Assembly: GCA_040877865.1 (NCBI GenBank)
Contig: JBBDND010000126.1
Location: forward strand, 1 to 25,871
Source of the DNA: Bacteriovoracaceae bacterium
GTDB lineage: Bacteria; Bdellovibrionota; Bacteriovoracia; Bacteriovoracales; Bacteriovoracaceae
DNA length: 25,871 bases
Direction of reading: 5' to 3'
In this document: piece by piece, positions 624 through 17,314 of the stretch
Layout: each line of letters opens with the position of its first letter
How positions within the stretch are numbered: the stretch's first letter is position 1
Made by a program: the position numbers and the translations under genes
The notes under the pieces: model-generated
What the model was told of the DNA's origin: nothing
The model's input: the letters and a program-made list of their open reading frames with translations, nothing else
Databases searched by the model: none

Positions 624-666
624 ATAACCTCTTCCGTAAAGTTACTATGTCATTATCTTACCAAAT

Positions 667-1152: not shown

Positions 1153-1741
1153 TTTCTTCCACCCCGCTTTTTTCTTTATAATTCTTATTATATCTAAAAG
1201 ACTCAACTTTAGTTTGTAAATCAATAATTTGAAAACGGCTGCGCACTTTTTCAGAAATATGCTTTATTTTAACTTCTTTCACATTAAGAATTCTTTCCGC
1301 CTTGGACAAGCTTTCAAAAAAGATCAGCGCTTGCAAAAAGGTGCCGCGTCCTTGGAATTGGTATTCTTTTGCAAAATAAAAGCCGTGATCCGCTTCATTT
1401 CCGGGAGATTGATTCGGCTGCTTCATTTTAAGATCAGTCGCCATATTACCCAGCAACTCTTGCACCTCGGCGTCGTTAACATCCGATGGCAACTGTTTTT
1501 GCACTTTTTCAATCTGCTTGACAACTTCTTGGACCCTGTCCTTGGTGGAGCTTAAATTCTTTTTAAACTCTTCTATTTGAGAAAGTTTAGTTTTCTCCCG
1601 CGCGATTTTGGTTTTCAAAACCGGCGTCTGGGTAATCAAATTTTGATAGGCTTCGTCTTTTTCAGAGTAAAGCATAAAAAGACCCTGAGCGGCATAAGCG
1701 ATAATAAACCAATGTATGTTTTTAATTAATACATTTTTCAT
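1127..1741 (-). CDS. pilO: Type IV pilus assembly protein PilO
   Basis: N-terminal hydrophobic segment, coiled coil, LPSDVNDAEVQELL, GTFLQALIFFESLSKAERILNV; located between pilN and pilP; 4-bp ATGA overlap with pilN. Confidence 0.88.
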   Translation of the reverse strand: MKNVLIKNIHWFIIAYAAQGLFMLYSEKDEAYQNLITQTPVLKTKIAREKTKLSQIEEFKKNLSSTKDRVQEVVKQIEKVQKQLPSDVNDAEVQELLGNMATDLKMKQPNQSPGNEADHGFYFAKEYQFQGRGTFLQALIFFESLSKAERILNVKEVKIKHISEKVRSRFQIIDLQTKVESFRYNKNYKEKSGVEEIEKQFNIN

Positions 1742-2331
1742 TCAAAACTCGCCACGGTTGCTTTAATCTCAAAAACCTCCAAATGCACATCATCCACCAT
1801 ATTGGGAATTGATTCCGGCCGTTCATAGCTGATATTTTTTTGAAAGAATATGGAATTCTTTAGGTTTTCAAGAAAGTTGCCTATATTTTTAAAATTTTTA
1901 GAATAACCTTGCATAGTGATGTCTTTATCATTGAGCTCCAACGAGGTAAGCCACACCCCTTCCGGAATATTTTCTGAAAGATACTTAAACACCTTAAATG
2001 GGTTTTGACGCTTATTGATAATTTGCTTTACCACCTCAAGCTTTTTTGCAAGTTTCGTTTCCCGATCTTTTAGAGCGTCAACTTGCTTTTCTATATTCCC
2101 CATCGCCGCCACTTTACCGCGAATTTCGCGATATTCTTTATTCAAGCTTACTTGTTTTGCCTGCTCCTTGGCCATGGCTTCCTCGTAATAAGACTCGATA
2201 AACCCCTCCGGCACATAAAGGATAACCAGCGCCAATACAATCATTTTGACATTGATTAAACTTAAATCAATGCCGCCAATATTGGTTAAAGAAGCCTCTT
2301 TTCTAGAAGGCGATAAGTTAATCTCAATCAT
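1738..2331 (-). CDS. pilN: Type IV pilus assembly protein PilN
   Basis: Starts MIEINLSP (PilN INLLP-like PilM-binding motif), then TM, coiled coil and IPEGVWLTSL...GYS...IGNFLENLKNS; TAATG overlap with pilM. Confidence 0.92.
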   Translation of the reverse strand: MIEINLSPSRKEASLTNIGGIDLSLINVKMIVLALVILYVPEGFIESYYEEAMAKEQAKQVSLNKEYREIRGKVAAMGNIEKQVDALKDRETKLAKKLEVVKQIINKRQNPFKVFKYLSENIPEGVWLTSLELNDKDITMQGYSKNFKNIGNFLENLKNSIFFQKNISYERPESIPNMVDDVHLEVFEIKATVASFE

Positions 2332-3425
2332 TATATCTTCCTAAGCCCAAGACCCATTGCCACCAATCCAGTGGTGGCGATACTGTCAATGTCTTCTTCA
2401 TTAAAGGCTTTTTTGTCGTATTCTATGGCGTCAAACGGATTTAAATATTGAGGCTCGATATCCACCACCTCTTGCAAGGTTTCGATAAGGCCTGGCAATC
2501 GACAACTGCCGCCGGTAATATAGCAGTACCCCACTTGCTCTGAAGAGCCCGCCGCGATAAAGAAGTTCAAAACTTTTCTAATCTCCCCCATCTGGCTTTG
2601 CAATTGAGAATGAATAATGGCCACAATTTCTTCCGGCAGATTTCCGTTTTCATCCCCTTGAGTTTTTAAATCTTCAGCTTCTTCATAGGAAACTCCCATT
2701 TGTCGCTGGATCTCTTCTGTAATAAGCACCCCGCCCACTGGAATTTCTTTGCTAAGAATAGGGCCGCCGTCTTTGTAAACCAAAACAGTGGTGGTTTGGG
2801 CTCCAAAATCAATGATTACGCTGCCCGCTTCACCAACGTCTTCCAGGGCGTCGCCCATGGCAAGCTCAAATAAATTATTAATGGCAAAAACGTTCAGATC
2901 CACTCTTTTGACGATAAGCCCCGCTTCCTGCAAATACTCCGTGTAGGTTTCGGCAACACCTATTTTTACCGCCGCCACCACCGCGTCAACCACGTCGTCT
3001 TCTTCAATCTTTGCAAGAATGGCGTAATCGACTTCAGATTCGTCCGCTCCAAAAGGGATGTACTGCTCGGGCTCCCATAAAATATTGTGTTCCACATCTT
3101 CTTTAGAGCCGTCTGGCACCTGCAATCTTTTACTCATGGTGTTTGGCCCGTCCATCCCAAGATTGCAAATACGCGCTTTAATTTTGGCGTCTAGCAGCGC
3201 TTGCTTCAGGGCGTCTACAATTTCTTCCGGCTTTTGAATTTCATCTTCTATAATGGCGGCTTCCGACAAAGGAATGGCGGCGTAGTGATCGAGTCTGTAA
3301 CGATTTTTTTTGGGATTGGATAAAAGCGCAAGCTTGACAGCGCTTAGACCGATGTCCACGCCAATGAGTTGGCCCTTTTCAAAATTGGCCATAAAATCTT
3401 TATATTTTTTTGCAAGCTCTGACAA
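2331..3425 (-). CDS. pilM: Type IV pilus assembly protein PilM (actin-like)
   Basis: IGVDIG, EQYIPF, IIDFGAQTT, ITGGSCRL, NPF and MGLGLR motifs of the FtsA/PilM family; TTG start. Confidence 0.95.
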   Translation of the reverse strand: MSELAKKYKDFMANFEKGQLIGVDIGLSAVKLALLSNPKKNRYRLDHYAAIPLSEAAIIEDEIQKPEEIVDALKQALLDAKIKARICNLGMDGPNTMSKRLQVPDGSKEDVEHNILWEPEQYIPFGADESEVDYAILAKIEEDDVVDAVVAAVKIGVAETYTEYLQEAGLIVKRVDLNVFAINNLFELAMGDALEDVGEAGSVIIDFGAQTTTVLVYKDGGPILSKEIPVGGVLITEEIQRQMGVSYEEAEDLKTQGDENGNLPEEIVAIIHSQLQSQMGEIRKVLNFFIAAGSSEQVGYCYITGGSCRLPGLIETLQEVVDIEPQYLNPFDAIEYDKKAFNEEDIDSIATTGLVAMGLGLRKI

Positions 3426-3436
3426 TTTCCCGTCCC

Positions 3437-3449
3437 TGATAAATTATCA
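3437..3449. promoter_or_regulatory. Perfect 6-1-6 palindrome TGATAA-A-TTATCA, putative operator
   Basis: Lies between the predicted pilM -10 box and the start codon. Confidence 0.4.
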
Positions 3450-3456
3450 ATAAGTT

Positions 3457-3486
3457 ATTATACCTAAAAGATTTTTCTTCTATCAA
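3457..3486 (-). promoter_or_regulatory. Sigma70-type promoter for pilMNOPQ
   Basis: Minus strand TTGATA (3486-3481), 18-nt spacer, TATAAT (3462-3457), in the pilD-pilM intergenic gap. Confidence 0.65.
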
Positions 3487-3505
3487 GGTTTTATACCGCA
3501 AAATG

Positions 3506-4291
3506 TTAATTAAAGCCAAAAGGATTAATTTGCGCGAATACCTGAGGAAAGAATATTTGTATGGCGGCTACCACTAGAATATATGGCCCAAAGGCCAAGG
3601 CGGTGTCTTTATTCATTTTTTTTGAAATGATAAGAGCTATGCCAATGACTGAACCTAGCAAACTACTCATAAATATAGTGTTCATCACCCCAACCGGTCC
3701 AAGCAGGACTCCCAAGATTCCAAAAAGCTTGATATCGCCGCCTCCAAGTCCAATTTGTCCTCTTAATTTGTAAAAAAGAAGCGTTACAAGGTAGGGACCT
3801 AAAAAGCCCACCAGTCCTCCAATCAGCCAATGGGGCAAAGGATTAGTTAGAATGGAGTAAGGCAGAGTGATCATTAATAAATAAAGATTTAATTTATCCG
3901 GCAGTATCTGGTGTTCAATATCGATTAGAAAATGGGCGAGAAATATGGCGGCGATGGAAAATTCCACCACAAAGCGCAACATTTCCAGGTGAGTGATTTG
4001 CAGCAAATTGATGTCGCTTGGAAAGAGCAAGAGCGCGAAAAGGCCGGTTAGCAACTCAACCAAGGGATAGCCCCAGCTGATGGCAACGTCGCACTCGGAG
4101 CACTTTCCTCTTAAAAGCAAATAACTAATTACGGGGATGTTTTCATGCCATCTGATTTTATGACCGCATTTAACGCAACTGGAGCGGGGCTTTACCACCG
4201 ACAAACCTCTAGGAATGCGATGAATCACCACATTTAAAAAGGAGCCGATTAACAAACCAAAAATAAAGACAAGGACCTGTACAGCAATCAT
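3506..4291 (-). CDS. pilD: Prepilin peptidase / N-methyltransferase
   Basis: IGSFLNVVIHRIP, two Zn-binding Cys pairs (CVKC, CSEC), catalytic Asp motifs IDIEHQILPD and GGGDIKL, multiple TM segments. Confidence 0.97.
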   Translation of the reverse strand: MIAVQVLVFIFGLLIGSFLNVVIHRIPRGLSVVKPRSSCVKCGHKIRWHENIPVISYLLLRGKCSECDVAISWGYPLVELLTGLFALLLFPSDINLLQITHLEMLRFVVEFSIAAIFLAHFLIDIEHQILPDKLNLYLLMITLPYSILTNPLPHWLIGGLVGFLGPYLVTLLFYKLRGQIGLGGGDIKLFGILGVLLGPVGVMNTIFMSSLLGSVIGIALIISKKMNKDTALAFGPYILVVAAIQIFFPQVFAQINPFGFN

Positions 4292-5067
4292 TAATCTAGA
4301 CTTTTTCTTTTAAAGAGATAGGCGATAATCAACAAAAGCGCCAAAGAGTAAACAAAACTATAACTCAGAGTTGCCGCGAGGTTGGCTCCTCCTATGTTGG
4401 ATTCATACAAAATATGGTCTTTTAAATTAAACCTGTAAAATCCCGGCAATACAAAGTCATAAAGATTTATCGCCTTTTGCAACCAGACGCGATTTAAAAC
4501 AAAAGAAAGGCTAGAAACTTCATGAATGGCGTAACCGGAAATATAAAGAAAGATTGTAAATAATATCGAGAGCACTTGGTTTGTAAGCAAAGATAGTAAC
4601 GTGATGACCAACAACACCACAATCGCCTCTAAAAATATAAAAAAGATTTGCCAACCGATAAGACTGTCAAAATTTCCGCCGGAAATAAAATAAACCAAGA
4701 GTGAAAGTGATGCTAAGATAGAGATGTTCATAGTCAAAACTCCTATCAAACCGAGCAACTTTCCCAAAATGAATTCCACTCTGGAGACGGGCCTTGAAAT
4801 AATCATATAAATAGTGCGACTTTCAATTTCTTTTTTAAGAAGATTGGCGCCAAAGAAGATGGCGATTGCGATAGAGCTTAAAGACAGCGCCCCCAGGCCA
4901 AAGTCAATAGCCACTCTCTGCGGAGCGCCATAGGTGAATTGATGAGCGACAAAAGTGATCACGACAAGACCAAGACCTAAGAAAAGAATATTGTACAAAA
5001 TCTTGCTCTTAAGGATTTCCATAAGAGTAAAACGGGAAATAATTAGAATTTTTTTAATATCTATCAT
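4291..5067 (-). CDS. pilI: ABC transporter permease, Myxococcus-type PilI-like
   Basis: About 6 TM segments with the KEIESRTIYMIISRPVSRVEFILGK motif of ABC-2-like permeases; lies between the ABC ATPase and pilD, as in Myxococcus and Bdellovibrio pil clusters. The symbol is the Myxococcus usage, not the Pseudomonas chemosensory gene. Confidence 0.75.
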   Translation of the reverse strand: MIDIKKILIISRFTLMEILKSKILYNILFLGLGLVVITFVAHQFTYGAPQRVAIDFGLGALSLSSIAIAIFFGANLLKKEIESRTIYMIISRPVSRVEFILGKLLGLIGVLTMNISILASLSLLVYFISGGNFDSLIGWQIFFIFLEAIVVLLVITLLSLLTNQVLSILFTIFLYISGYAIHEVSSLSFVLNRVWLQKAINLYDFVLPGFYRFNLKDHILYESNIGGANLAATLSYSFVYSLALLLIIAYLFKRKSLD

Positions 5068-5923
5068 CGTTTTTAGTTTTGTAGAAGATTTCCTCTAAAG
5101 TCGGTTTATGTTGGTTAACACTGATAATATTAACGTTATGCTCTATTAACTCTTTAATCGTAGCCTGTTTTTCTGAATCTTTAACTTCAATAGATTCAAC
5201 TTGATCATTTCTCATGTATCTTATGGTGGAAAAGGGCTTTAAATTTTTATTGATAATCATGTCCACTTTTCCTTCGTAATGAAGTTTGCCTTCTTTCAAA
5301 AAAATGACTTTTTCGCAGATATCCTCCACATCAGAAATGATATGGCTGCTAAAAAACACTGTTTTTCCTTGCTGATGAATTTCCACGATAATGTCTTTTA
5401 ACTCTTTTCTTCCTAAAGGATCCACTCCCGACAAAGGCTCATCCAAAATAATCAGCTCAGGGTCATGAATAATAGTTGATAAAAAACCTAACCTTTGAAG
5501 CATCCCTTTGGAGTAATTTCTTATTTGTCGGTCTAGGGCGAAATCAATTCGAAATTTGGGAGCCCATTTTAAGATCACTTCTTTAAGTATTTTGGAAGGA
5601 ACGTCACATAAGCTTCCAACGTACAGACAAAACTCACGACCAGTTAGAGAGGGATAAAAGTAAGGCCTTTCAGGCAAATAACCTACTTTAGAGAAAATCT
5701 CCTTTCGCGTGCTGCCAAGTCCAATATATTCAACCTCTCCCTTAGATGGCGGTATAAACTCCATTGCTATTTTCAAGCTTGAAGTTTTTCCCGCTCCATT
5801 GGCGCCCAGAAATCCCACCACCGTGTTTTTCTCAACCTCGAAAGAAACCTTCTCCAAAGCTGTGAACGATTTGGTAAAAATGTCCGTGTCAAAAACTTTG
5901 GTAATATTATTGAACTTCAACAT
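5054..5923 (-). CDS. pilH: ABC transporter ATP-binding protein, Myxococcus-type PilH-like
   Basis: Walker A GANGAGKT, signature YSKGM, Walker B LIILDE, H-loop SSH. The start is placed at ATG 5923 (MLKFNNITK) because the track start at 6007 overlaps the divergent gene. Confidence 0.85.
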   Translation of the reverse strand: MLKFNNITKVFDTDIFTKSFTALEKVSFEVEKNTVVGFLGANGAGKTSSLKIAMEFIPPSKGEVEYIGLGSTRKEIFSKVGYLPERPYFYPSLTGREFCLYVGSLCDVPSKILKEVILKWAPKFRIDFALDRQIRNYSKGMLQRLGFLSTIIHDPELIILDEPLSGVDPLGRKELKDIIVEIHQQGKTVFFSSHIISDVEDICEKVIFLKEGKLHYEGKVDMIINKNLKPFSTIRYMRNDQVESIEVKDSEKQATIKELIEHNVNIISVNQHKPTLEEIFYKTKNDDRY

Positions 5924-5929
5924 ACACTT

Positions 5930-5994
5930 ATTTTTATGGTTTACAGTTGTTCTGACAAGATTTATTGAAGTCTCCGGATAAATTAGGTTAAAAT
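5930..5994. promoter_or_regulatory. Back-to-back sigma70-like promoters for pilH (-) and the pilG-like gene (+)
   Basis: Minus: TTGTCA (5958-5953), N17, AAAAAT (5935-5930), 6 nt, ATG. Plus: TTGAAG (5965-5970), N18, TAAAAT (5989-5994), 5 nt, ATG. Confidence 0.45.
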
Positions 5995-5999
5995 GCGAT

Positions 6000-6833
6000 A
6001 TGACCATAACTCGTCAAAACAGCAATTTTATACACTCTCTGCTCTTTGTAACCCTCCTAATTTCTATGTTGTATGGCAGCCATTATTTAAAAAGAGCTTT
6101 TATGTACGGGAAAATCGAGGTCTCTGCGCAGGAGTCAGTCTTAAACTTCAACAGTAATTTCTTAAAAATATTTAGCATGGGTCAAAAGCGGCTGATATCA
6201 GACACGTTTTGGATCAAAACATTGCTTGACTCTGACCTGGAGCACTACAACAAAAGAGATCTAAACTCTTGGATGTATCTTCGCTTTAACACCATTTCGG
6301 AGCTGGACCCTCTCTTTAAAAGCAATTATGTGTTTGGCGGAAAATATTTGGCTATCGTGAAAGACGATATTCTCGGCGCCAACAAGCTACTTTTGCGGGG
6401 ACTTAAACACTTTCCGGAGGAAAAAGACATTATTCAGATGCTCGCTTTTAATTACACTTTTGAATTAAACGATTTTCACAATGGACATTATTTTTACAAG
6501 AAGTTAAGCCAGTTTCCGAATAGTCCGGAATTCATCTCCTCTCTTTTGGTGAAGATTCAATACGCCGACTCTTTGGATCTTGACGAGGCTCTGGCTTCCC
6601 TAAAAAGTCTTCTCAACAGCGAGAGCGACTTGAACAGCGCAATGGCCGCTAAACTTCAAAAAGATATTCACAACATAACCATCCAACTAGACCTAGAATG
6701 TCTAAACCTAGGGGGAAATAATTGCTCCAAAAAGGATCCAAACGGCATGGGGTACAAAAAAAGGAGAGGGGTTTATGTTGCCCCAGGAGATTATTCGCCA
6801 TACAAACTTCATATCAAAAGAACTAAACCATAG
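6000..6833 (+). CDS. pilG: PilG-like (Myxococcus PilG / Geobacter XapA-like) membrane-anchored helical/TPR-like protein
   Basis: N-terminal TM, then MGQKRLISDTFWIK, ISELDPLFKSNYVFGG, LLRGLKHFPE...LAFNY and C-terminal DPNGMGY, a pattern I recall from PilG/XapA accessory proteins; adjacent to the ABC pair. Confidence 0.65.
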   Translation: MTITRQNSNFIHSLLFVTLLISMLYGSHYLKRAFMYGKIEVSAQESVLNFNSNFLKIFSMGQKRLISDTFWIKTLLDSDLEHYNKRDLNSWMYLRFNTISELDPLFKSNYVFGGKYLAIVKDDILGANKLLLRGLKHFPEEKDIIQMLAFNYTFELNDFHNGHYFYKKLSQFPNSPEFISSLLVKIQYADSLDLDEALASLKSLLNSESDLNSAMAAKLQKDIHNITIQLDLECLNLGGNNCSKKDPNGMGYKKRRGVYVAPGDYSPYKLHIKRTKP

Positions 6834-6863
6834 TTTTTTAAGAGAATTCAGCAGGCGTTTACT

Positions 6864-7472
6864 ATGACTATTACAAATGAAAAAAAGGCTCAAAGGCATA
6901 TTAGTAAATATGAAAATACAAACTTTATTCATAGACACGTTTTAAACGCCTTTCAAAACAAGCTATTAACACTAATGAATAAAAAGTATAAAAATGTCTT
7001 AGAAATAGGCTGTGGGGAAGGATTGTTATTAAAATCTCTTCTAATCAAAGGCTTTATGACGGAAAGTTATTGTGGGATTGACACCAGAAGAGAGGCGATA
7101 AAAGTGGCGCAAGAGATTCACCCCAACTTTTCTTTTAAGTGGACGGCTTATCAAGATTTCGCAACCACAAAGAACTTCGATTTGATTATTTGCAGCCAAG
7201 TTTTGGAGCATTTAGAGGAGCCTTCACAATGTTTGCAAAAAATTGCAGAGCTGGCTAACAATGAAACAGATATTGTTTTGTCCGTTCCCTGGGAACCTTG
7301 GTTTATGCTTTCAAACTTTGTCAGGGGAAGGGACTTACTAAGTTTCGGAAACCATCCAGAACACATTCAACATTGGTCAGCGTCTTCTTTTCAGAAGTTG
7401 GCGAGAAAACATTTTAGCGCCAATCACTTGGCCCTTTCGTTTCCATTTTTGATAATAAAGTCGAACTTATGA
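6864..7472 (+). CDS. Class I SAM-dependent methyltransferase
   Basis: VLEIGCGEG (motif I), FDLIICSQVLEHLEEP, and SVPWEP...GNHPEHIQHWS; ATGA overlap with the next gene. Confidence 0.92.
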   Translation: MTITNEKKAQRHISKYENTNFIHRHVLNAFQNKLLTLMNKKYKNVLEIGCGEGLLLKSLLIKGFMTESYCGIDTRREAIKVAQEIHPNFSFKWTAYQDFATTKNFDLIICSQVLEHLEEPSQCLQKIAELANNETDIVLSVPWEPWFMLSNFVRGRDLLSFGNHPEHIQHWSASSFQKLARKHFSANHLALSFPFLIIKSNL

Positions 7473-9612
7473 TTAACAAGTTATCCCACCTTCAAAAACA
7501 TATCCCCCTTGCAACGTTGATATTCTCATGGTTTTCAATACTACATTTCGGCTTTTTCAATATCTTTAGCCAGAGCGACTTGTTCATGCAACACGCTCAT
7601 TACTCCGGTGATATTGGCGGTTTAACAAATATTTATAACTTTTTTCAACTAGGTGGAGTCTTACACAGGCCTCTGTTCGGGTATATCTCTTTAGATATTG
7701 TTTTAAACTACATATTCCGGGACGAGTTTATAATACCCAAGTTGATATCTATCATTATTGGTTCATTGAACGGGTACTTGGCTGTTATCTCATTCGAAAA
7801 TTTCAAAGGGTTTAAACTAACCCTTGAGCAAAAAACCATCACGCTTTTAACGTTTACGTTTTTACCAATATTTGGATGGAGATTGCAAGCTGGCCATTAC
7901 AGCATGATGTTTGCAATTAATTTTCTCGCTTTGAATGTTTGGATTTTGTCTTGTTTTGCGGCTAAGAGCTACAAGATTAAATACTTGTTTTTTTATTTTT
8001 TGGTTCTTTTTAATCATCTGACCTATCCCCCCATCGCGCAAGTTTTTATTTACATTGGTTTATCGCTAATTCCTTTATATGTGTACTACCTGTACAAAAA
8101 CAAGGATTCCCGCTCCTACTTCCTATACTTCTCAGGATTTAACCTCTTAACCGTACTTGCGCACTTCGACCAATTTTACTTGTTTTTACAATTATCCGCC
8201 TCCGGAGAATTCTCGAGATCGTATCAACCCGCGATTTACACTTACTTTCAAGCCTCATCTAAACACTTCCTTTCAATGTTTACTTTTAATAAATACTTGC
8301 TATCCAAGGTGGAGTTCCAAAGTTTTTTGTTTCATGAGTTCAATTATCCGATTTACTTGATCTCTCTTTTCCTATTGTTGAAAAACTTCAAAAAACATAG
8401 AGCGGTTTTTTATTACTTCATGTTCATCCTGACATGTGGTGTTGTTTTAGCCGCGGGACCCTTTGGGGTGGACGAGCTTTTCAAGCAAGTCCCGCTTCTA
8501 AAATCTTTTAGGGTGCCTGCCAGGTATTTTATAATTATAAGTTACGCTCTTGTTTTCTACGCTTTTTATTGTTTGCTTGACCAGACTCGCTCCGGCCCAA
8601 AAAATCGGATATTTTATCTCATCGGTCTAATCATACTCTGCAAGTTTGTAGGCCTAATTGTCATTGAAGGGCTCTTATTACTCGCAACTTTAGGTTACGC
8701 GTTGTCCGCGCTCTTTAAAAAACACGAGCTTCAAAGCTTTTCGATCATCGTTATCGCGCTTATCGCCTTGTTGAACATAAAGTTTTTCGATGAAAATATA
8801 AGTGTTATGAAAAAAGACTCGGAGAGACTAAGCGCTCAAAAGCTTAAAATTTTAGAGTTGGTGGCTTCCAAGAACCCGCTTAATAAATACTTCATAATGA
8901 ACGAGTTGACTCTCCCGCAAAAAAACACAGGCCTCTTTTTTAAAATTGGGAACTTAGACGGATATGGATTTCCAGGCATAAGGTTTATAAAACTTCACTC
9001 ATTCTTATTAGACGAACCCTTTAACAACCAAAGAGTTGTTTATAAGAGCTTGCCCCTGGAGAAGCATAACGTACTGAACAAGATGTTTAGGCTAAAGGGG
9101 CTTTTGAGTTACAAAGATTCTGGCTGGGAATTGGAGGAATATAAAAACTACCCTGTCCGAAAAAATGTCAAAATTCACCGATATGAAGACAAAACTGAGC
9201 TTTAAAAGATATCAAAACCAAATATGAAAATAATGAGTATTTCAAAAAAAATATATTTGTAGAAGAAAAATTTCCAAAGAGCGGCGAATTGAAGGTGTGT
9301 GATTTTAAAATTTCAGAAGTTTCCTCTAGGATCGTGATTAATGACATCAAATCCATAGAATATCCCTGCTTAATAGTTTTACCGTACAATTATTCTTCAT
9401 TATTAAAAGCCAATAATTCCAAACTATACGCTGTGGACTATGTAAACATCGGCCTTTTGGTTGAGGATAAGAATAAAGAACAAATTGTTGTCTCCGCGCG
9501 GTATGATTTTAAAAATTACATCATCGCCAAAGTCGGATTATGGTTCTTTTTGTTGATTGGATTTTCGCTTTATCAGTACAAGGTTGCGCATGTAAATAAG
9601 AGAGTTCATTGA
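7469..9612 (+). pseudogene. YfhO-like GT-C membrane glycosyltransferase split by a one-base frameshift at 9201-9203 (pseudogene or sequence error)
   Basis: The 578-aa polytopic ORF (FRVPARY, NLDGYG) stops at CTT TAA (9200-9205). The -1 frame is open from 9199 to 9612 and encodes a YfhO-like tail (CLIVLPYNY...AVDYVNIGLLV...ARY...KVGLWFFLLIG plus a terminal TM). Adding one T gives a 714-aa protein. Confidence 0.7.
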
Positions 9613-9822
9613 AGTTCCTAAAATGAATATGGGGTCTTTTCTATAAATTGAATATGAAAATAAAAGGAGAGATCCGACTATGGAAAAATACCAGAAGGAT
9701 GTGGGGATATAACTTTCGCCTTTCTTTTCTGATGCCACCCACTGAATTAAAAACCTTAGGCCAAAAAGCGCCTGGCCCAAACCGCCAATTAATAGCCATA
9801 AAGCTTTGACTGTTAGCAACAA
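9538..9822 (-). CDS. Stand-alone LAB_N (lipid A biosynthesis N-terminal domain) small membrane protein
   Basis: WLLIGGLGQALFGLRFLIQWVASEKKGESYIPTSFWYFSIVGSLLLFSYSIYRKDPIFILG...IYMRNL matches the LAB_N pattern; GGAG SD before the TTG start. Confidence 0.88.
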   Translation of the reverse strand: MLLTVKALWLLIGGLGQALFGLRFLIQWVASEKKGESYIPTSFWYFSIVGSLLLFSYSIYRKDPIFILGTSMNSLIYMRNLVLIKRKSNQQKEP

Positions 9823-9857
9823 TTTTCTCCAATAAAATGCTTTCTACTAATAATTGT

Positions 9858-9865
9858 ATTATAAT
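9858..9865. promoter_or_regulatory. Palindromic ATTATAAT giving a TATAAT -10 box on both strands between the LAB_N and GT2 genes
   Basis: Lies in an 80-bp AT-rich divergent gap; no convincing -35 box on either side. Confidence 0.3.
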
Positions 9866-9902
9866 ATCATAAGTATTTTAAAGAATTAAAAAAGTAATTA
9901 TT

Positions 9903-10847
9903 ATGGATGTTTCAATAATTGTGCCCGCTTTCAACGAGGGCGACTCTATTAAAGAGCTTTATGAAGAAATTAAAAGAGCCATGTCCGACAGGGTCTACAG
10001 CTTCGAAGTCATTATTATAGATGATGGCAGTACTGACAGAAGCCACCAAGTCATTAAAAGCATAAGTGAACATGACAGCAATTTCAAATACCTTTCCATG
10101 GTTAAAAACTGCGGTAAATCTGTAGCGCTTAATGAAGGCTTTAAAGTTTCATGCGGAAAATATATTGTGACAATGGACGCGGACCTCCAAGACGACCCTA
10201 ATGAAATTCACAATTTAATTTCCAAGTTGGAGGATGGTTTTGATGTCGTAACTGGATGGAAAAAAGAACGAAAAGATCCTCTTGAAAAAAGAATTCCATC
10301 AAAAGTTTTTAACCTTGTCTTAAGAGTTGTTTCTGGATTGAAAATTAATGATTTCAATTGCGGATTAAAGATATACAAAAAAGATGTGGTCAAACATTTA
10401 AAAATTTACGGGGAACTGCATCGCTTCATCCCAATGATTCTGCATTTCAAAGGATTTAACGTTGCCGAAATTCCAGTAAAGCATCGTAAAAGAAAATATG
10501 GCAAATCCAAATACGGGCTCCACAGATACTTTGTGGGGTTCATGGATTTATTAACCATTATTTTAACTGTAAAGTTTAAAACAAGACCATTGCACCTATT
10601 TGGAGGGGTAGGTGTATTAATTTTTTTAGTTGGTTTTTTGGTTTTATCATATCTGTCTCTGTTATGGTTTTTAGATATAAGGCCCATTGAGGCCAGACCG
10701 CTTTTCTTCTTGGGCATCCTCTCAGTGCTTTCAGGCATTCAATTTGTAACTACGGGGTTAATAGCGGAGTTAATCACAAAAAATGATCCAAACTTGGAAG
10801 AGTATATTTTAAAAGACACAAACATTAATGAACAAAGCGACTTATGA
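9903..10847 (+). CDS. GT2 polyprenol-phosphate glycosyltransferase (ArnC/DPM1/GtrB-like)
   Basis: SIIVPAFNE, IIDDGSTD, NCGKSVAL, MDADLQDDP, DFNCGLK, ELHRFIP, RKYGKSKY, plus two C-terminal TM helices. Confidence 0.93.
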   Translation: MDVSIIVPAFNEGDSIKELYEEIKRAMSDRVYSFEVIIIDDGSTDRSHQVIKSISEHDSNFKYLSMVKNCGKSVALNEGFKVSCGKYIVTMDADLQDDPNEIHNLISKLEDGFDVVTGWKKERKDPLEKRIPSKVFNLVLRVVSGLKINDFNCGLKIYKKDVVKHLKIYGELHRFIPMILHFKGFNVAEIPVKHRKRKYGKSKYGLHRYFVGFMDLLTIILTVKFKTRPLHLFGGVGVLIFLVGFLVLSYLSLLWFLDIRPIEARPLFFLGILSVLSGIQFVTTGLIAELITKNDPNLEEYILKDTNINEQSDL

Positions 10848-12484
10848 ACCCTAACAAAAATTTCGCGCGGGCCTGCGCTTTAATTTTGACCCTTGCATCT
10901 GCGTCCCTTTATATTGTCCCCTTTTTTAACGAACCAATCATGGTTGATGAACACCTTATCATTACCCCCTTAAAAGAGGTTGATTCCCTGTCGGGTTTGA
11001 TTTCTAAGTACAAAGCCAAAGAAATATATGACCTTCAACCTCTAAGAGATTTAAGTCATTTGTTGGATATTAAAATTGAATCGTTAACCGGGTTCAAACA
11101 AGCGCCACTTTTTAACAATCTAATTCTTCTTTTTGCCATTTGCGCTCTAATTTTTCATATCGCTGGCCGCTATCTAAATAAAAAAAAAGCTTGTTTCCTT
11201 GTCTCTATTTTCCTATTCCATCCTTTGGTTTTTCATATCTTTGTTGAATATACCTCACGCAAACACATACTAAGCTTTTTATTCGTTTTGTTGATTATCA
11301 AGCTTTATCTGGGAACGAATTTTCAGGGGAGGGCAAATAAAGTCAAAGGTTCTTTCCTCTTTGTCTTTTCTTGCTTGTCGCAACCTATCAATATTTTTCT
11401 CCCCGTGTACACTTTTATTTTAGACCTGAATCGGGGAAAGAGAATTAAAGAGGGTCTTAAAAACAACCTTCCCCTATTTATCACGTCCTTTCTCTTTGGA
11501 ATTGGGAACCTCTACTATTTTACATTTGTTTTTAAAGAAATCACAGGTGTTTCAAAAATTACATTTTTTAACCCGGGTGAAGCTTTGCTATCATTGGGAA
11601 GGTATTTCACTCAAATTTTTCTTCCTCTGAACTTCAGCATGTTTTATTTCCAGGGTTCGGTCCTTTCTTTAATCGGGCTGCTGCTCGGAGTGGTGTTGCT
11701 TTATTTTACAATCAAAAAGTTGAAACCGCTTCACGTTTTGATTACTTGGCTGCCGTTACTTCTTATTTTTTTCACTTTAAATTATAAAGTTACGAATGTT
11801 TTTCTTTTTAATACTTATCTGCTAACCCCTCTGACGTGTTTGCTTATCTTACTGGGGTTCATATTAAAGAGAATAGCTCTTAAACCTAGTCTCATGATTC
11901 TCCCCGCTCTTTTATTCTCCATTTCTTTAAAATACTCGCTTCTTCGCGCCGACCCCTTAAACTACTTCATTACATCGTATGAAAAAGAGCCTACCTGTCA
12001 AGTGCTTCAGTCGATAGTTCACTACTCAATGGATGAGATGGATTTAAATACTTTTAGTTCATATTCCAAAGAATGGCTAAACCGCAAATGCAATTATTTT
12101 AATAAAAAAAATGTTTTTCTTCGAAACGTTATCCTATCTCACATGATTTTAATTTCTCCTGAATTTGATAAACAGAAAAAACATCGGTTTTTTGAAGAAA
12201 AATTTATCAATGAAAGAGACAAACACATTCTTTTTGCGGCAACTGAGATTCTAAGCAAGAATTCAAATTCAGCTAAAATAACAGAATATTTAGCGTTTTA
12301 CAGCTCGGTTAAAAAAAAGACTGTCTTTGTTTCGAAAGGGACTTTCGCCGGAAAAATAGTGGTTAATCATTGCCAAAAATTTTCAGAAATAAAAGGCTGT
12401 GAGGACTTTCTTGCGTATTTTAAAAGAATGGAAAATGAAAAATTTGATGTCAAATATAAGTTGAAGATAGAGACTCCTCGTTAA
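10844..12484 (+). CDS. TMTC-like GT-C membrane glycosyltransferase with soluble C-terminal helical domain
   Basis: VDEHLI acidic pair after TM1, QPLRDLS (YRPL-like), FLFHPLVFHIFVEYTSRKHIL (HP..EAV..I.GR-like), CLSQP (LSKE-like), FLPLNFSMFY, NTYLLTP (ERYLYLP-like); ATGA overlap with the GT2 gene. Confidence 0.65.
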   Translation: MNPNKNFARACALILTLASASLYIVPFFNEPIMVDEHLIITPLKEVDSLSGLISKYKAKEIYDLQPLRDLSHLLDIKIESLTGFKQAPLFNNLILLFAICALIFHIAGRYLNKKKACFLVSIFLFHPLVFHIFVEYTSRKHILSFLFVLLIIKLYLGTNFQGRANKVKGSFLFVFSCLSQPINIFLPVYTFILDLNRGKRIKEGLKNNLPLFITSFLFGIGNLYYFTFVFKEITGVSKITFFNPGEALLSLGRYFTQIFLPLNFSMFYFQGSVLSLIGLLLGVVLLYFTIKKLKPLHVLITWLPLLLIFFTLNYKVTNVFLFNTYLLTPLTCLLILLGFILKRIALKPSLMILPALLFSISLKYSLLRADPLNYFITSYEKEPTCQVLQSIVHYSMDEMDLNTFSSYSKEWLNRKCNYFNKKNVFLRNVILSHMILISPEFDKQKKHRFFEEKFINERDKHILFAATEILSKNSNSAKITEYLAFYSSVKKKTVFVSKGTFAGKIVVNHCQKFSEIKGCEDFLAYFKRMENEKFDVKYKLKIETPR

Positions 12485-12495
12485 GAGGAGTCTCT
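12469..12495. terminator. Probable (bidirectional) terminator between the convergent GT-C gene and pilA
   Basis: Perfect 11-bp stem AGAGACTCCTC-GTTAA-GAGGAGTCTCT, a few nt after the double TAA stop of pilA; U tracts are weak. Confidence 0.75.
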
Positions 12496-12504
12496 TCGCA
12501 GTTA

Positions 12505-13101
12505 TTAGTATCCCGGCTGGACAATTGTTAATTTCTTATCCTGGTTCATGTTTATTATGCTTCTATCACCATCAGCTTCTTTGCCTCCCATAATGACTCC
12601 TTCTGCCGACAGTATAAAAGTTTGGGAGTCTCCATCTGATTGAGTCCCTAAGGCAGAGGTTTGCAGCCCCGAATCCACGACTGTGGCCCCCACACCTTTG
12701 CCAGCGGCAAACCAAGTGTCTCCATCGGCGGTCGCCAAAGTACGCGAACAACTATCTGAAAACAGGCCGGAACTCTCGGCGCTTTCATATGCCGTCGCGT
12801 TTATAGCCGCGGCTTGATCAATGCCAATCGCATAATATCTTGAATCCGCTTGAGTGGAAGGGTCATACCCCATGTAGGTAAAGCAGTTGTGATAAATCCC
12901 AAAATCCCCATAAAACGCCTGTTCGGCGGTGTACGCAGCCGCTAACTGCACCTTGGCTTCGGAACTTTTAGCCTTGGCCTGATAGGTTTTAAAGTTTGGA
13001 ACAGCGACAGCAGAGAGAACTCCAATAATCGCGACAACAATCATAAGCTCTACCAGCGTAAAGCCTAACTGATTGCTCAGTCTAGTGTTAAATCTTTTCA
13101 T
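12505..13101 (-). CDS. pilA: Type IVa major pilin
   Basis: 13-aa leader ending G|[24 protein letters not shown] with Glu5; strong SD (AAGGAG); follows pilC and has its own terminator. Confidence 0.95.
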
Positions 13102-13116
13102 TTTCTACTCCTTTCC

Positions 13117-13171
13117 CTTAAACATTGAGAGTTTAAGCTTTTAACCGAAGACTACATTGAGAGCAGTCTTC
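13117..13171 (-). promoter_or_regulatory. Twin stem-loops with identical 7-nt loop (UCUCAAU) in the pilA leader
   Basis: Minus strand GAAGACTGC-TCTCAAT-GTAGTCTTC (13171-13147) and CTTAAAC-TCTCAAT-GTTTAAG (13137-13117), immediately before the SD. Confidence 0.75.
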
Positions 13172-13264
13172 TAATATTAATATTTTAATCTAGTTCAATA
13201 ATTATTCGGCTAAAGTATTAATTAAGTTAAAAGTTTTTTTGCTTTCCTTTGTAAAACCAAACAC

Positions 13265-14494
13265 TTAGCCTCCCGCTCCGCCGGCCGACATAAAGATTGG
13301 CAGATACATGGCGATCAAAACCGTGCCAATCATGCCGCCTAAGCCAACTAAAATTGCCGGTTCTATCAGTTTGGTCATATTTTCAATCAGCTCTTCCGTT
13401 TCTTGCTCAAAAACATCCGCCACTTTGATAAGCATCTCGTCCAGGTTGCCGGTGGATTCTCCAACTTTCACCATTTGATTCACCAAAGGCGGAAAGTAGC
13501 GAATTCGTCCCAGGGGCTCGGTGATAGACTTCCCTTTCATAACCGCTTCTCTGACGCCTCGGATGTCTTTTTGGATTTGGGTGTTGTCTATGGTTTCGAT
13601 GCACACATCCAACGCCTCCAAAAGATCCACCCCGGCGCTAAGCATAGTGGCTAAGGTTCTGGTGAACCCGGAGAGATTGCCTTTAATTATAATTCCTCCA
13701 AACACCGGCGTTTTCATGGTGAAGCGGTCCCATTTTATTTTGCCTTCTTTGGTTTTAATAAAATTGACGAATAAAAAGCCGCCCACCGCAAAGGCCGGCA
13801 ACATTAAAAGCGTGTATTCTTGGAAGAAGTCGGAAGTGTCGATAACAAATTGAGTTACTCCTGGAATTTCCTGCCCGGAATCTTCCAACATGCCTACAAA
13901 TTGTGGAACAACAAACACCATCAGCCCCCACGTGACCGCCAGTCCAATCACCAAAACAATGATGGGATAGGTCATGGCGCCTTTTATCTTTTTCTTTATG
14001 GCCTCTTGTTTTTCCATGAATTCGCTAAGCTTGTTTAGAATGGTGTCCAAGATCCCCGCGGACTCTCCCGCTTTCACTAGCGAACAATAAAGTTTGTCAA
14101 AGCCTTTTTGAGCGGACATGCCCTCATGCAAAGATTTCCCCCCGCCCACGTCTTCCATCACTTTTTTGATGGCGACTTTTAAGGAAGGATTTTTTTCCTG
14201 CTTTGCTAAAATTTCCATGCACTCCAAGATGGGAACGCCGGCGTTTATGAGAATGGAGAGCTGTTTGGTGAAGCGGTTCAGCTCCAGTTTGCCAAAAGGC
14301 TTAACAAAGCCTTTTTCAACCATGAGCATGCCAAGGTCAATATCCAACGGACTGGGAGCGACGACTTTTTTGGTCCGCACGCCTTGGCGACGCAACAAGC
14401 GCTTAACGTGCCTGACGTCTTTGCCATCGATCTCGCCTTGGACCTTTTTGCCCTCGGCGTTTACTCCTTCGTATTTAAACTTTCCTTGCGCCAT
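13265..14494 (-). CDS. pilC: Type IV pilus inner-membrane platform protein PilC
   Basis: T2SSF family: FTKQLSILINAGVPI, AGESAGILD, KIKGAMTYP, FTRTLATMLSAGV, VGESTGNLD, MYLPIF. Confidence 0.97.
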   Translation of the reverse strand: MAQGKFKYEGVNAEGKKVQGEIDGKDVRHVKRLLRRQGVRTKKVVAPSPLDIDLGMLMVEKGFVKPFGKLELNRFTKQLSILINAGVPILECMEILAKQEKNPSLKVAIKKVMEDVGGGKSLHEGMSAQKGFDKLYCSLVKAGESAGILDTILNKLSEFMEKQEAIKKKIKGAMTYPIIVLVIGLAVTWGLMVFVVPQFVGMLEDSGQEIPGVTQFVIDTSDFFQEYTLLMLPAFAVGGFLFVNFIKTKEGKIKWDRFTMKTPVFGGIIIKGNLSGFTRTLATMLSAGVDLLEALDVCIETIDNTQIQKDIRGVREAVMKGKSITEPLGRIRYFPPLVNQMVKVGESTGNLDEMLIKVADVFEQETEELIENMTKLIEPAILVGLGGMIGTVLIAMYLPIFMSAGGAGG

Positions 14495-14503
14495 TAGTTA
14501 TTC

Positions 14504-15619
14504 CTACTTTTTTTCAATTCCCAGCATCTTGGCCATCTCTTCCGGGTTATTTGAATAAGACATGGCGGCCTCAGAGTCAATAAGTCCTTTGTCCAACGCC
14601 CGCTTGATGCTTTGATTCATAGTGACCATATGGCTTTTTTCCTGATTGATCTGCATCTGAGAATAAACCTGATGCAGTTTATCCTCTCTGACCAAGTTTC
14701 TGATGGCGGGAGTCATTCTTAAAATTTCTTGAGTCAAAACCCTGCCGCCACCTTTTTTGGGAAGCAGCTGCTGCGCCACCACTCCTTGCAAGACAAAAGA
14801 CAAAAGCGTTCTAATTTGTTCCTGACGATCCGCCGGAAAAACATTGATTACTCTTGAGATGGTTTGAATGGTGGAGTTGGTGTGAAGCGTTCCAAAAACC
14901 AAGTGTCCCGTTTCGGCGATTTCCAAAGCCGCTTCGATCGTTTCCATGTCTCTCAGCTCCCCCACTAGCACGATGTCGGGGTCTTGGCGCAAAAGACTTT
15001 TTAGCCCGTTTTTAAACTTTAAGGTGTCCACCCCAATCTCTCTTTGATTCACAATGCTGGATTTATGAGAGTGAACAAATTCAATGGGATCTTCCAGTGT
15101 TATAATATGCCCCGGCTCATTGGTGTTTAGCCGATCGATGATGGACGCCAAGGTGGTTGATTTGCCCGATCCAGTGGGTCCGGTGACCAAAATAAGGCCG
15201 TTGGAGACGTCTGTCATATCGAGCAAAACTTTGGGCAAACCCAATGATTCGAAATCCGGCACTTGCGTGGGAATTTGCCTAAACACGGCCGCGACTCCGC
15301 CTTTTGCATAAAAACAATTGGCCCTAAATCTGGCCAGGCCTTTGACGCCAAAAGAAAAATCAAGCTCCAAGTTTTTCTCAAGCTCCGAGCGCTGAGCTTC
15401 GGTCAATATTTGATACACCAATCTTTTTGTGTCGTCGGAAGTGAGCGGCCCGGTTTTCACTCTGACGATGTCGCCGGATATGCGCATGCCCGGGGAAGTT
15501 CCCACCGTTATATGCAAGTCTGAAGCGCCGTTGTCCACCATGACCTTAAAGAGTTGCTGTATTTGCAGATTTTGAGCTCCACCGGCCGCTTGTGTTTTAG
15601 TTCTTGTAGCATCACTCAT
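14504..15619 (-). CDS. pilT: Pilus retraction ATPase PilT
   Basis: ASDLHI, Walker A GPTGSGKST, EDPIE, LRQDPDIVLVGE, GTLHT and the AIRNLVRE motif. Confidence 0.97.
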   Translation of the reverse strand: MSDATRTKTQAAGGAQNLQIQQLFKVMVDNGASDLHITVGTSPGMRISGDIVRVKTGPLTSDDTKRLVYQILTEAQRSELEKNLELDFSFGVKGLARFRANCFYAKGGVAAVFRQIPTQVPDFESLGLPKVLLDMTDVSNGLILVTGPTGSGKSTTLASIIDRLNTNEPGHIITLEDPIEFVHSHKSSIVNQREIGVDTLKFKNGLKSLLRQDPDIVLVGELRDMETIEAALEIAETGHLVFGTLHTNSTIQTISRVINVFPADRQEQIRTLLSFVLQGVVAQQLLPKKGGGRVLTQEILRMTPAIRNLVREDKLHQVYSQMQINQEKSHMVTMNQSIKRALDKGLIDSEAAMSYSNNPEEMAKMLGIEKK

Positions 15620-15643
15620 TTTTTTACTCCTTAAATTAACTTC

Positions 15644-17314
15644 CTACAAATTGTCGGCGGCTGAATTGGACAAAGCCTCTTCCAAAGTGGTCAAACCTTG
15701 GGCGACTTTGGTCAGCGCCGACATTCTTAAAGTTTTCATGCCTTCTTTAATGGCGGTGGCTTTTATATCGTCGGAAGAGGCGTTTTTTAAAACCAACTCC
15801 CTTAACCTGGGACTCATCTCCAACACTTCATAAATGGCGAGTCTTCCTCTATACCCCGTGTTATTGCACGCTTCGCAGCCCTTGCCGTGATAGACCTTTA
15901 TTTTTTCCGCCGAAGCCGGCGCAAAACCGCACGCCACCAGCTCGGCCTTTGAAACATTGTGAATTTGCCTGCAGTTAATGCAAATTTTTCTGCACAGCCT
16001 TTGGGCCACCACCACATTCAAGGCCGCGACCACTAAAAATGGCTCAATGCCCATGTTTAACAATCTAGTGACTGTGGAGGGCGCGTCGTTGGTGTGCAAA
16101 GTGGACAAGACCATGTGCCCGGTCAAAGCCGCTTCCACCGCGATCTCTCCCACTTCAAAATCTCTGATCTCCCCAACCATTATAATATCCGGGTCTTGTC
16201 TCAGAAAAGCTTTGAGCACCGAGGCGAATGTCAGTCCCACGTCTTTTTTCACATTGACCTGGTTAATGCCTTCCAAGTTAAATTCGCAAGGATCCTCGGC
16301 AGTGGAGATATTGGTGTTTTCTTTATTCAACTCAGCCATGGCGGAGTAGAGCGTGGTGGTCTTCCCCGATCCAGTCGGGCCGGTGACCAAAACCATGCCG
16401 TAAGGGTTGTAAATTCCCCTTTGAAAAACATCAATTTGTTTTTGTTCAAACCCAAGCTTGGTCATGTCTAGCTGCAAATTTGATTGATCCAAAAGCCGCA
16501 ACACCACTTTTTCCCCAAAAAGGGTGGGCAAAGACGACACTCGGTAATCGATGGGTTTGCCGCCAATGGACAACTTTATCCTGCCGTCCTGGGGCTTTCG
16601 TTTTTCAGAGATGTCAAGCGAGGCCATAATTTTCAAACGGGAAATAATGGGCAACATCATGGATTTGGGAGGCCTGCCGACTTCCACCAAGGAACCGTCA
16701 AGACGAAATCTTACTCTAAAAATTTTTTCATACGGCTCGACATGTATGTCCGAGACCCCTTTAATAAAAGCGTCCGCCAAAATTCTGTTAACGTAGGTCA
16801 CGGTGTCTTGTCCGATATCTTCGGCTTTGACCTCTTGCTCGTTCTCGCTGTTGGACTTTATTTCGGTGACAGTGTGGATTAAGTCCTCAACGGAGTCTTC
16901 AACGCTGGCGTACAATTTTCTCCAGGAAGAAAGATTGGTTAAAATAAACTCTGTCGGCTTTTTTAATTCTTGTCCAAGTTTGGCCTTTGCCGCGACAACA
17001 GTGGGATCAAAAGTCGCCACTGTAACCTTGGCGCTGGTGACTTGGATGGGTATGGCCCGGTAGCTAATAACAAATTTTTTCTTTAAAGACTTAATCGTCT
17101 CTTTTGCCACCTTGGCGTTTTTTAAATCAATAAAAGTCAGGCCGTATTTTTCAGAGATAATTTTAGCGAATTTATTTTCGTCAAAGGAAGGCAAGCTCAA
17201 AAGCTCCAGCTCAGTCACCTCATCCTCGTCTTTGTTCATCATAAGCCGGCGCAACTCTTTCAGAGTCGCCATGCCAGTATTAGTTATGACATCAATAAAT
17301 TCCTTGCGGACCAT
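15644..17314 (-). CDS. pilB: Pilus extension ATPase PilB
   Basis: SDIHVEP, PQDGRI, Walker A GPTGSGKTTT, LRQDPDIIMVGE, tetracysteine Zn site (CINC...CEAC), GYRGR. Confidence 0.97.
   Translation of the reverse strand: MVRKEFIDVITNTGMATLKELRRLMMNKDEDEVTELELLSLPSFDENKFAKIISEKYGLTFIDLKNAKVAKETIKSLKKKFVISYRAIPIQVTSAKVTVATFDPTVVAAKAKLGQELKKPTEFILTNLSSWRKLYASVEDSVEDLIHTVTEIKSNSENEQEVKAEDIGQDTVTYVNRILADAFIKGVSDIHVEPYEKIFRVRFRLDGSLVEVGRPPKSMMLPIISRLKIMASLDISEKRKPQDGRIKLSIGGKPIDYRVSSLPTLFGEKVVLRLLDQSNLQLDMTKLGFEQKQIDVFQRGIYNPYGMVLVTGPTGSGKTTTLYSAMAELNKENTNISTAEDPCEFNLEGINQVNVKKDVGLTFASVLKAFLRQDPDIIMVGEIRDFEVGEIAVEAALTGHMVLSTLHTNDAPSTVTRLLNMGIEPFLVVAALNVVVAQRLCRKICINCRQIHNVSKAELVACGFAPASAEKIKVYHGKGCEACNNTGYRGRLAIYEVLEMSPRLRELVLKNASSDDIKATAIKEGMKTLRMSALTKVAQGLTTLEEALSNSAADNL

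Follow-up and report, generated by a model that had tools for sequence, protein, structure and literature searches.

A putative TfpW-like pilin glycosylation cassette in the Myxococcus-type pilus locus of a Bacteriovoracaceae bacterium

We analysed a 25,871-nucleotide stretch of DNA (the window), which is one complete 25.9-kb contig of a metagenome-assembled genome (MAG; 1.68 Mb, 78% complete) of a Bacteriovoracaceae bacterium. The window carries a type IVa pilus (T4aP) locus of the Myxococcus type. Its minus-strand genes pilQ', pilP, pilO, pilN, pilM, pilD, pilI and pilH (3-6007) are separated from pilA, pilC, pilT, pilB, aroE and ribF (12505 onward, also on the minus strand) by a block of other genes, which a first-pass annotation made from the letters alone had taken for a lipid-linked pilin-glycosylation cassette. 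All of the genes that it named are present between pilH-pilI-pilD and pilA, where it had put them. The cassette comprises a glycosyltransferase of family 2 (GT2) of the polyprenol-phosphate-sugar type, two proteins of predicted GT-C fold, a LAB_N protein and a methyltransferase. In agreement with that annotation, these families and folds give good support to a putative lipid-linked extracytoplasmic glycosylation pathway.

The plus-strand block opens with orf277 (6000-6833), the protein of the PilG slot, which has an N-terminal transmembrane helix followed by a helical domain. Downstream on the same strand are a class I S-adenosylmethionine-dependent methyltransferase of 202 residues (6864-7472; Methyltransf_23, E 7.6e-21), a YfhO-like GT-C gene split by a frameshift (7469-9612), the GT2, of the polyprenol-phosphate glycosyltransferase (PP-GT) type (9903-10847; PF00535, E 1.1e-32), and a 546-residue TMTC-like GT-C with a C-terminal TPR domain (10844-12484), recognized from a structure model and fold searches. 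Stop/start overlaps of 4 bp join the methyltransferase to the 578-aa open reading frame (ORF) of the YfhO-like gene and the GT2 to the 546-aa ORF. The LAB_N gene, encoding a small membrane protein of 94 residues (9538-9822; PF07578, E 6.8e-30), is present as first reported but lies on the minus strand, divergent from the GT2 gene and overlapping the 3' end of the YfhO-like gene by 75 bp. The 546-aa GT-C gene converges on pilA across a 20-bp gap. The pilA gene (12505-13101, minus strand) encodes a major type IVa prepilin of 198 residues (N_methyl, E 3.4e-08; best NCBIfam match, Myxo-type PilA) with a leader cleaved after G13. A promoter and terminator scan and a repeat search of positions 5800-13400 gave no signal beyond that of shuffled sequence, nor any repeats at the flanks that would mark an insertion, and the cassette itself holds no genes for nucleoside diphosphate sugars.

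The GT2 aligns end to end with ArnC (9bhc, E 3.6e-46, residues 3-293), GtrB (5ekp, E 4.6e-28, residues 2-292) and the archaeal dolichol-phosphate mannose synthase (DPMS; 5mlz), which identifies it as a polyprenol-phosphate sugar synthase. It has the layout of a GT-A catalytic domain, juxtamembrane helices and two C-terminal transmembrane helices. Its NCBIfam matches to ArnC (E 6.4e-50) and PgfS (E 3.7e-42) both fall far below the equivalog cut-offs, and the sugar therefore cannot be named. LAB_N matches PF07578 over model positions 1-71 of 71 with 103.4 bits against a cut-off of 26.7, and adjoins a GT2 in three further genomes (G021, G022 and G031). We regard it as a candidate flippase or utilization factor for the polyprenol-phosphate sugar; a literature search on LAB_N and PF07578 returned unrelated papers only. 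The methyltransferase gave only generic matches in NCBIfam and the Protein Data Bank (PDB), and distant methyltransferases adjoin related GT2 genes at locus L041 and in genome G010. Besides the window copies, no PP-GT-type GT2 and no LAB_N were found in the MAG (G000). A further GT-C, an ArnT-like PMT_2 protein of 454 residues, is encoded on a 2.8-kb contig of the MAG (C209, 1024-2388), and the GT2 and LAB_N, as the sole copies, may also serve it.

The first-pass annotation had proposed HMM and structure searches; those of Pfam and NCBIfam left orf277 and both GT-C candidates without a match; for the two GT-C candidates, no Pfam model matched even at E 10. Homologues of both large membrane proteins are rare. 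The GT-C labels are instead based on structure models, fold searches and language-model look-alikes, and both proteins can confidently be predicted to adopt GT-C folds. The AlphaFold (AF2) model of the 546-aa protein, built from a 13-sequence alignment, has a pLDDT (predicted local distance difference test) score of 81.8 and comprises eleven long helices before residue 370 and paired helices at residues 371-542. From the helix order and the basic N-terminus, we predict about 11 transmembrane helices and a cytoplasmic N-terminus. The best fold matches in Swiss-Prot are the protein O-mannosyltransferases TMTC1-4 (E 5.7e-8 to 3e-6; TM-scores by query 0.57-0.65), with alignments extending to residue 530 and beyond at a sequence identity of 10-13%. 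Within the PDB, the model matches ArnT, PglB, ALG12 and AftA with a probability of about 1. Structure-atlas neighbours are TPR proteins; none of the Pfam TPR models matches the window's copy. The profile of the family, hereafter GT-C/TPR, reaches bacterial proteins that combine PMT_2 and TPR domains, some of them with the TMTC-type DUF1736 domain.

Residue D35 in loop 1 is invariant in 13 GT-C/TPR members, forming a D35-E36 pair in the window and DD in most relatives; D63, Q65, P66, R68, D69, K140 and H141 are also conserved. The loop after the seventh transmembrane helix reads Y-x6-P-L in the window protein and lacks a final proline. P261 is nearly invariant in the family, and the relatives P0003, P0005 and P0006 fit the pattern Y-x6-P-x-x7-P. 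A pattern scan was built on a 6-sequence alignment, the 13-sequence alignment having given no conserved stretch. A complex prediction of the 546-aa GT-C with mature PilA, run without controls, scored 0.01 and counts neither for nor against binding.

The YfhO-like GT-C is likewise present as first annotated, but its gene is broken by a 1-nt frameshift. Homologues of the 578-aa ORF measure 660-810 residues, and the closest, P0012 (712 residues), aligns to both pieces, matching the downstream 107-aa ORF at E 7e-17. Frame 2 runs into a stop codon at 9203-9205, and frame 1 reads open from 9199 on, which places the frameshift at 9199-9205. These alignments and the frame pattern together indicate a single gene of about 714 codons, with pieces at 7469-9205 (the 578-aa ORF) and 9205-9612; the 107-aa ORF (9289-9612) is its tail and was rejected as a separate gene. 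A model of the mended protein, with X at the break, has a pLDDT of 88.3 and a predicted TM-score (pTM) of 0.90, and comprises a GT-C core, a β-sandwich that spans the frameshift and a last transmembrane helix. Its fold matches include ArnT, STT3, PglB, AftD, Bacillus subtilis YkoS and a lactococcal protein. The Pfam YfhO model (PF09586) matched neither the window protein at E 10 nor eight homologues at E 0.01; the resemblance lies in architecture and language-model features, and we therefore call the protein YfhO-like and not a member of the family. The same stretch is also present on contigs from four sediment-metagenome runs of one study. The contig from run X1 is identical to the window at the frameshift, and that from run X2 carries one more T, behind 9200, and so regains the 714-aa frame. 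The difference may be genuine, an on/off polymorphism, or may stem from an assembly error at a depth of about 7x.

At the left edge of the block lies pilH, the ABC ATPase of the PilGHI set (5054-6007, minus strand; ABC_tran, E 1.4e-20; best NCBIfam match, a GldA-type ABC protein). Its synteny is kept in all relatives, and its homologues align from residue 17-29 onward, so that the true start is probably near 5923. Homologues of orf277 are 34-41% identical to it and divergent from pilH in every relative examined: the position of orf277 on the strand opposite to pilH is the family norm and not a local inversion, and a reading of the plus-strand block as an inversion of the Myxococcus gene order was rejected on the same observation. 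An Archangiaceae contig has a related gene in the pilA-pilH slot, to which the orf277 family profile aligns (hhalign 95.8%, E 6.5e-9). This homology and the position of orf277 in the pilA-pilH slot support its original label as PilG-like; the comparison behind the label is with the Archangiaceae slot gene and the pilA-G-H-I-D order.

The GC content of positions 6864-12484 is 35.6%, the lowest of 490 equal-size windows of the MAG (median 44.3%, sd 1.9). A low value is partly expected for genes rich in transmembrane segments, and the core genes pilH and pilI are GC-poor too. A split in GC runs through the pil locus as such: comparing positions 1-6007 with 12505-17314, pilH, pilI, pilN, pilO and pilP have 36-39% and pilA, pilC, pilT and pilB 46-48%, the genome standing at 44.3%. 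No homologue of the GT-C/TPR protein or of LAB_N was found in the five same-genus genomes searched, and a GT2 homologue occurs in only one of them (G004; 45% identity), on a contig without pil genes. The pilC-pilH interval of G001, G003 and G005 is 1.6-1.75 kb long and holds only pilA and an orf277 homologue; in G002 the two ends of the interval lie on separate contigs. The first-pass annotation had proposed comparing the pilA-pilH interval across related genomes, and the interval indeed proves variable, with the cassette an accessory insert missing from congeners. In a more distant genome, G033, the pilC-pilG interval (L016, 3418-10009) contains a sigma-54 activator, pilA, a dockerin-domain protein, a 366-aa pilin-like protein and a 546-aa ORF; the last, despite its slot, is unrelated to the GT-C/TPR family and was discarded as a relative.

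Window PilB, PilT and PilC are 82-92% identical to their counterparts in congeners and 72-86% identical to those of the clade of locus L022, an order that PilA reverses, with 47-49% identity to congeners and 58-60% to the L022 clade. In trees, PilA groups with the GT-C-bearing clade of L022, L023, L024 and L002 (support 99/97), as does the window GT-C (100/99); PilC groups with the GT-C-less congeners (92/98). The approximately unbiased (AU) test rejected a grouping of PilA with congeners (p 0.032). The pilA allele co-varies with the presence of the TPR GT-C, a relation that the first-pass annotation had proposed to test, and the two phylogenies agree. The incongruence between PilA and PilC is suggestive, but it is a single event and no proof that the cassette was exchanged.

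Genes of the GT-C/TPR family recur in pil loci. Besides the window, they are found inside the pil locus of L002 (a TARA scaffold), L015 (genome G010), L018 (genome G023), L022, L023, L024, L026, L030 and L032, and near pilI in L028 (an Archangiaceae contig); 15 of the 25 members with readable context are pil-linked. The pil-linked genes nearly always adjoin a pilin gene directly. Two copies accompany two pilins in L002, L023 and L024, and in L026 a single pilA is flanked by two copies, the second of which is the sole co-directional case downstream of pilA. On the family tree, linked and unlinked members are interspersed, with at least 8 state changes among 25 rows, equal to the mean of shuffled labels. 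Linkage to pil genes has thus arisen or been lost on many occasions and does not go back to a single inherited accident.

Genome G010, which belongs to another genus, offers a parallel. Its GT-C/TPR gene lies downstream of pilD, inside the pil locus, and the roughly 6-kb block that separates the PilG-slot gene from pilM (contig C57) encodes a 469-aa GT39-like membrane protein (a label that is a language-model lead only), a methyltransferase, a PP-GT-type GT2 with 27% identity to that of the window, an NAD epimerase, a UDP-GlcNAc 2-epimerase and another GT2. The 469-aa protein is unrelated in sequence to the YfhO-like family and was rejected as a member of it. This set is functionally similar, non-orthologous and differently placed, which argues against a neutral hitchhiker. 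As to the surrounding order in G010, pilD-pilI-pilH is inverted relative to pilB-T-C-A (L015 and L053; C57, 36500-58000).

Beyond the pil genes, in the aroE and ribF region (17373-18972), window aroE encodes 221 residues with the N-terminal shikimate dehydrogenase domain alone detected, and ribF is a separate gene; L002 (14577-16172), L022, L023 and L024 have a single ORF of 531-535 aa with FAD synthetase, flavokinase and Shikimate_dh_N matches.

On balance, we read the block as a TfpW-like accessory system for O-glycosylation of the pilin, seated in a variable slot of the Myxococcus-type T4aP locus. The accessory nature of the insert, the variable pilA-pilH interval and the co-variation of pilA with the GT-C favour a pilus-related role, parallel to TfpW, and PilA as acceptor is suggested by gene linkage, by that co-variation and by protein-directed structural relatives with TfpW as precedent. 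At the cytoplasmic face of the membrane, the GT2 would charge undecaprenyl phosphate with a sugar taken from a nucleotide sugar, as expected of its family. The methyltransferase may methylate this sugar or its precursor, and LAB_N could help the lipid-linked sugar to reach the periplasmic face. There, the TPR domain of the TMTC-like GT-C would engage PilA and the enzyme would transfer the sugar to pilin Ser/Thr residues before assembly, a step that we infer from gene linkage, pilA co-variation and the TMTC and TfpW precedents. The YfhO-like GT-C might add or extend a second sugar on the same or another target, and intact and frameshifted alleles of its gene may both be present in the population.

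Several observations weigh against this assignment. Window PilA has no obvious Ser/Thr-rich tract, and its GT-C gene converges on pilA, unlike tfpW, which follows pilA. The conflict between the PilA and PilC trees is marginal; the reverse constraint on PilC was not rejected (p 0.174). About 10 of the 25 GT-C/TPR members are not near pil genes, and most of the pil-linked ones have no adjoining GT2. They are co-directional with the PilG-slot gene as often as they are adjacent to pilA, and a role tied to the PilGHI ABC-2 transporter would fit nearly as well. Moreover, for the GT2, LAB_N, methyltransferase and YfhO-like genes, the closest homologues occur outside pil, in ordinary glycan loci: the closest GT2 relatives (46% identity) stand beside a methyltransferase, a B12-radical SAM enzyme and a PMT_2 GT-C; the GT2-LAB_N pairs of G021 and G022 are accompanied by PMT_2-type GT-Cs and sugar epimerases; and the YfhO-like relatives adjoin UDP-sugar dehydrogenase and epimerase genes. 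This half of the cassette looks like a portable glycan-decoration module. The first-pass annotation had held that homologous cassettes usually occurring far from pil genes would speak against it; this is what we find for these parts but not for the TPR GT-C, the only one of the cassette parts to recur in pil loci.

The same neighbourhoods, together with the greatest similarity of the GT2 being to ArnC, lend weight to the main alternative, which we consider unlikely, namely that the cassette decorates a glycan instead of a protein. Its target would be a polysaccharide or lipid-linked glycan of the PilGHI ABC-2 transporter, or lipopolysaccharide (LPS) or lipid A, the lipid A of B. bacteriovorus being known to be mannosylated, and the cassette would be a three-component system of the Gtr or Arn type. 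The pil-linked GT-C/TPR gene often shares operon direction with the PilG-slot gene, and the nearest match of pilH is to ABC-2 ATPases of the GldA/DrrA type, which serve in glycan export. In Geobacter, we take xapD (GSU1501) to be the PilH counterpart near pilA. About half of exopolysaccharide production depends on xapD (10.1101/114900), and three-component systems typically modify glycans (PMC11127046). A glycan target accords poorly with the TPR GT-C, however, since its best fold matches are protein O-mannosyltransferases and TPR tails suit protein substrates. Across loci, the constant neighbour of this gene is a pilin gene, including pilins on both sides in L022 and L026, and the pilA allele varies with GT-C presence. 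The window also holds no glycan polymerization genes.

Pilin might instead be one of several targets, or the target might be minor pilins or PilQ, if the TPR GT-C were a general periplasmic protein O-glycosyltransferase that is often parked in a pil locus, comparable to PglL, which has many protein substrates in Neisseria. Such breadth would suit the many family members outside pil loci with no pilin nearby and a family that is itself a branch of very widespread bacterial PMT_2+TPR proteins, and streptococcal YfhO-type GT-Cs do glycosylate many membrane proteins (PMC12041528). It would not explain why GT-C copy number follows pilin number in L002, L023 and L024, or why the PilA and GT-C phylogenies agree, and we consider it improbable. 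Lastly, the block might have arrived by horizontal transfer and settled in a convergent intergenic region that tolerates insertions, as a hitchhiker with no functional tie to the pilus. This would agree with its extreme GC content, its absence from the five congeners and the unrelated cargo in the same slot of G033, but is very improbable given the recurrence of the GT-C/TPR family at pil loci of many lineages in several arrangements, the parallel set of G010 at a different and non-convergent position (PilG-slot gene to pilM), and a low GC that is partly expected of such genes and shared by pilH and pilI.

Type IVa pili serve in prey attachment and entry in Bdellovibrio-like predators and are phage receptors. 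If PilA is indeed glycosylated by the cassette, the surface chemistry of a predator's pilus would be variable and strain-specific, the bacterial TMTC-like GT-C/TPR family, very large and without assigned function, would gain a concrete and testable substrate, and LAB_N would gain a testable role. The comparative pattern also singles out, as amenable to experiment, cultured or near-cultured lineages with the minimal form: PilG-slot gene, GT-C/TPR and pilA. We speculate further, in a proposal that is unlikely to hold as a whole, that in Bacteriovoracia the major pilin and the TMTC-like GT-C are exchanged or retained as a co-varying module, that swappable donor cassettes (GT2, LAB_N, second GT-C and methyltransferase) diversify the pilus glycan under phage or prey-recognition pressure, that on-off alleles of the second GT-C circulate within one population, and that LAB_N is the bacterial helper that makes lipid-linked sugar available to GT-Cs. 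To our knowledge, this helper step has no assigned protein in most such systems.

Among known systems, the cassette compares most directly with TfpW of Pseudomonas aeruginosa group IV (Pa5196/PA7), an enzyme of 11 transmembrane helices with a TPR domain in the periplasm. Its first loop bears a DDx motif and its fourth a Y-x6-PF-x7-P motif, and its gene lies next to pilA, sometimes clustered with donor-synthesis genes (10.1101/2020.04.19.049825). We compared it by its described features, with the motif taken from its description; among the matches of the GT-C/TPR family profile search, no protein is named TfpW. The window GT-C shares the predicted count of about 11 transmembrane helices, the TPR domain at the C-terminus and the acidic residues in loop 1; in loop 4 it reads Y-x6-P-L, without the final proline of the TfpW motif. 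Its gene adjoins pilA in a variable accessory slot, and a polyprenol-phosphate monosaccharide donor is expected. It differs in that this donor would come from an ArnC/GtrB-type GT2, whereas that of TfpW is made via the PRPP (phosphoribosyl pyrophosphate)/DprE route to D-arabinofuranose, and in the presence of a YfhO-like second GT-C, LAB_N and a methyltransferase.

The structurally best match of the 546-aa protein is the metazoan TMTC1-4, which with DPM1 and MPDU1 form a system of protein O-mannosylation dependent on dolichyl-phosphate mannose. Both join a GT2 that makes the lipid-linked sugar to a small membrane protein with several passes, as helper, and to a GT-C whose TPRs are extracytoplasmic, luminal in TMTC; LAB_N is presumably kin to the MPDU1/PQ-loop proteins. 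The window GT-C nevertheless shares only 10-13% identity with TMTC and has far fewer TPRs, and its expected carrier is bacterial undecaprenyl. The bacterial three-component systems GtrA/GtrB/Gtr*, ArnC/ArnEF/ArnT, CsbB/GtcA/YfhO and PgfS/PgfM1 similarly encode together a GT2 synthase, a small flippase candidate and a GT-C, and the window's second GT-C has the YfhO-type layout of GT-C core, β-domain and last transmembrane helix. With GtrB/PgfS donors, GT-Cs of the YfhO family O-glycosylate regions of proteins that are rich in Ser and Thr (PMC12041528). In contrast to these systems, the window has LAB_N in place of GtrA, GtcA or flippases of the SMR/MATE type, and has two different GT-Cs inside a T4aP locus, one of them missing the Pfam YfhO model. 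Our literature searches found no pilin glycosylation system described in Bdellovibrionota; within this phylum, we regard the cassette as a putative TfpW-type variant and not as a new kind of system.

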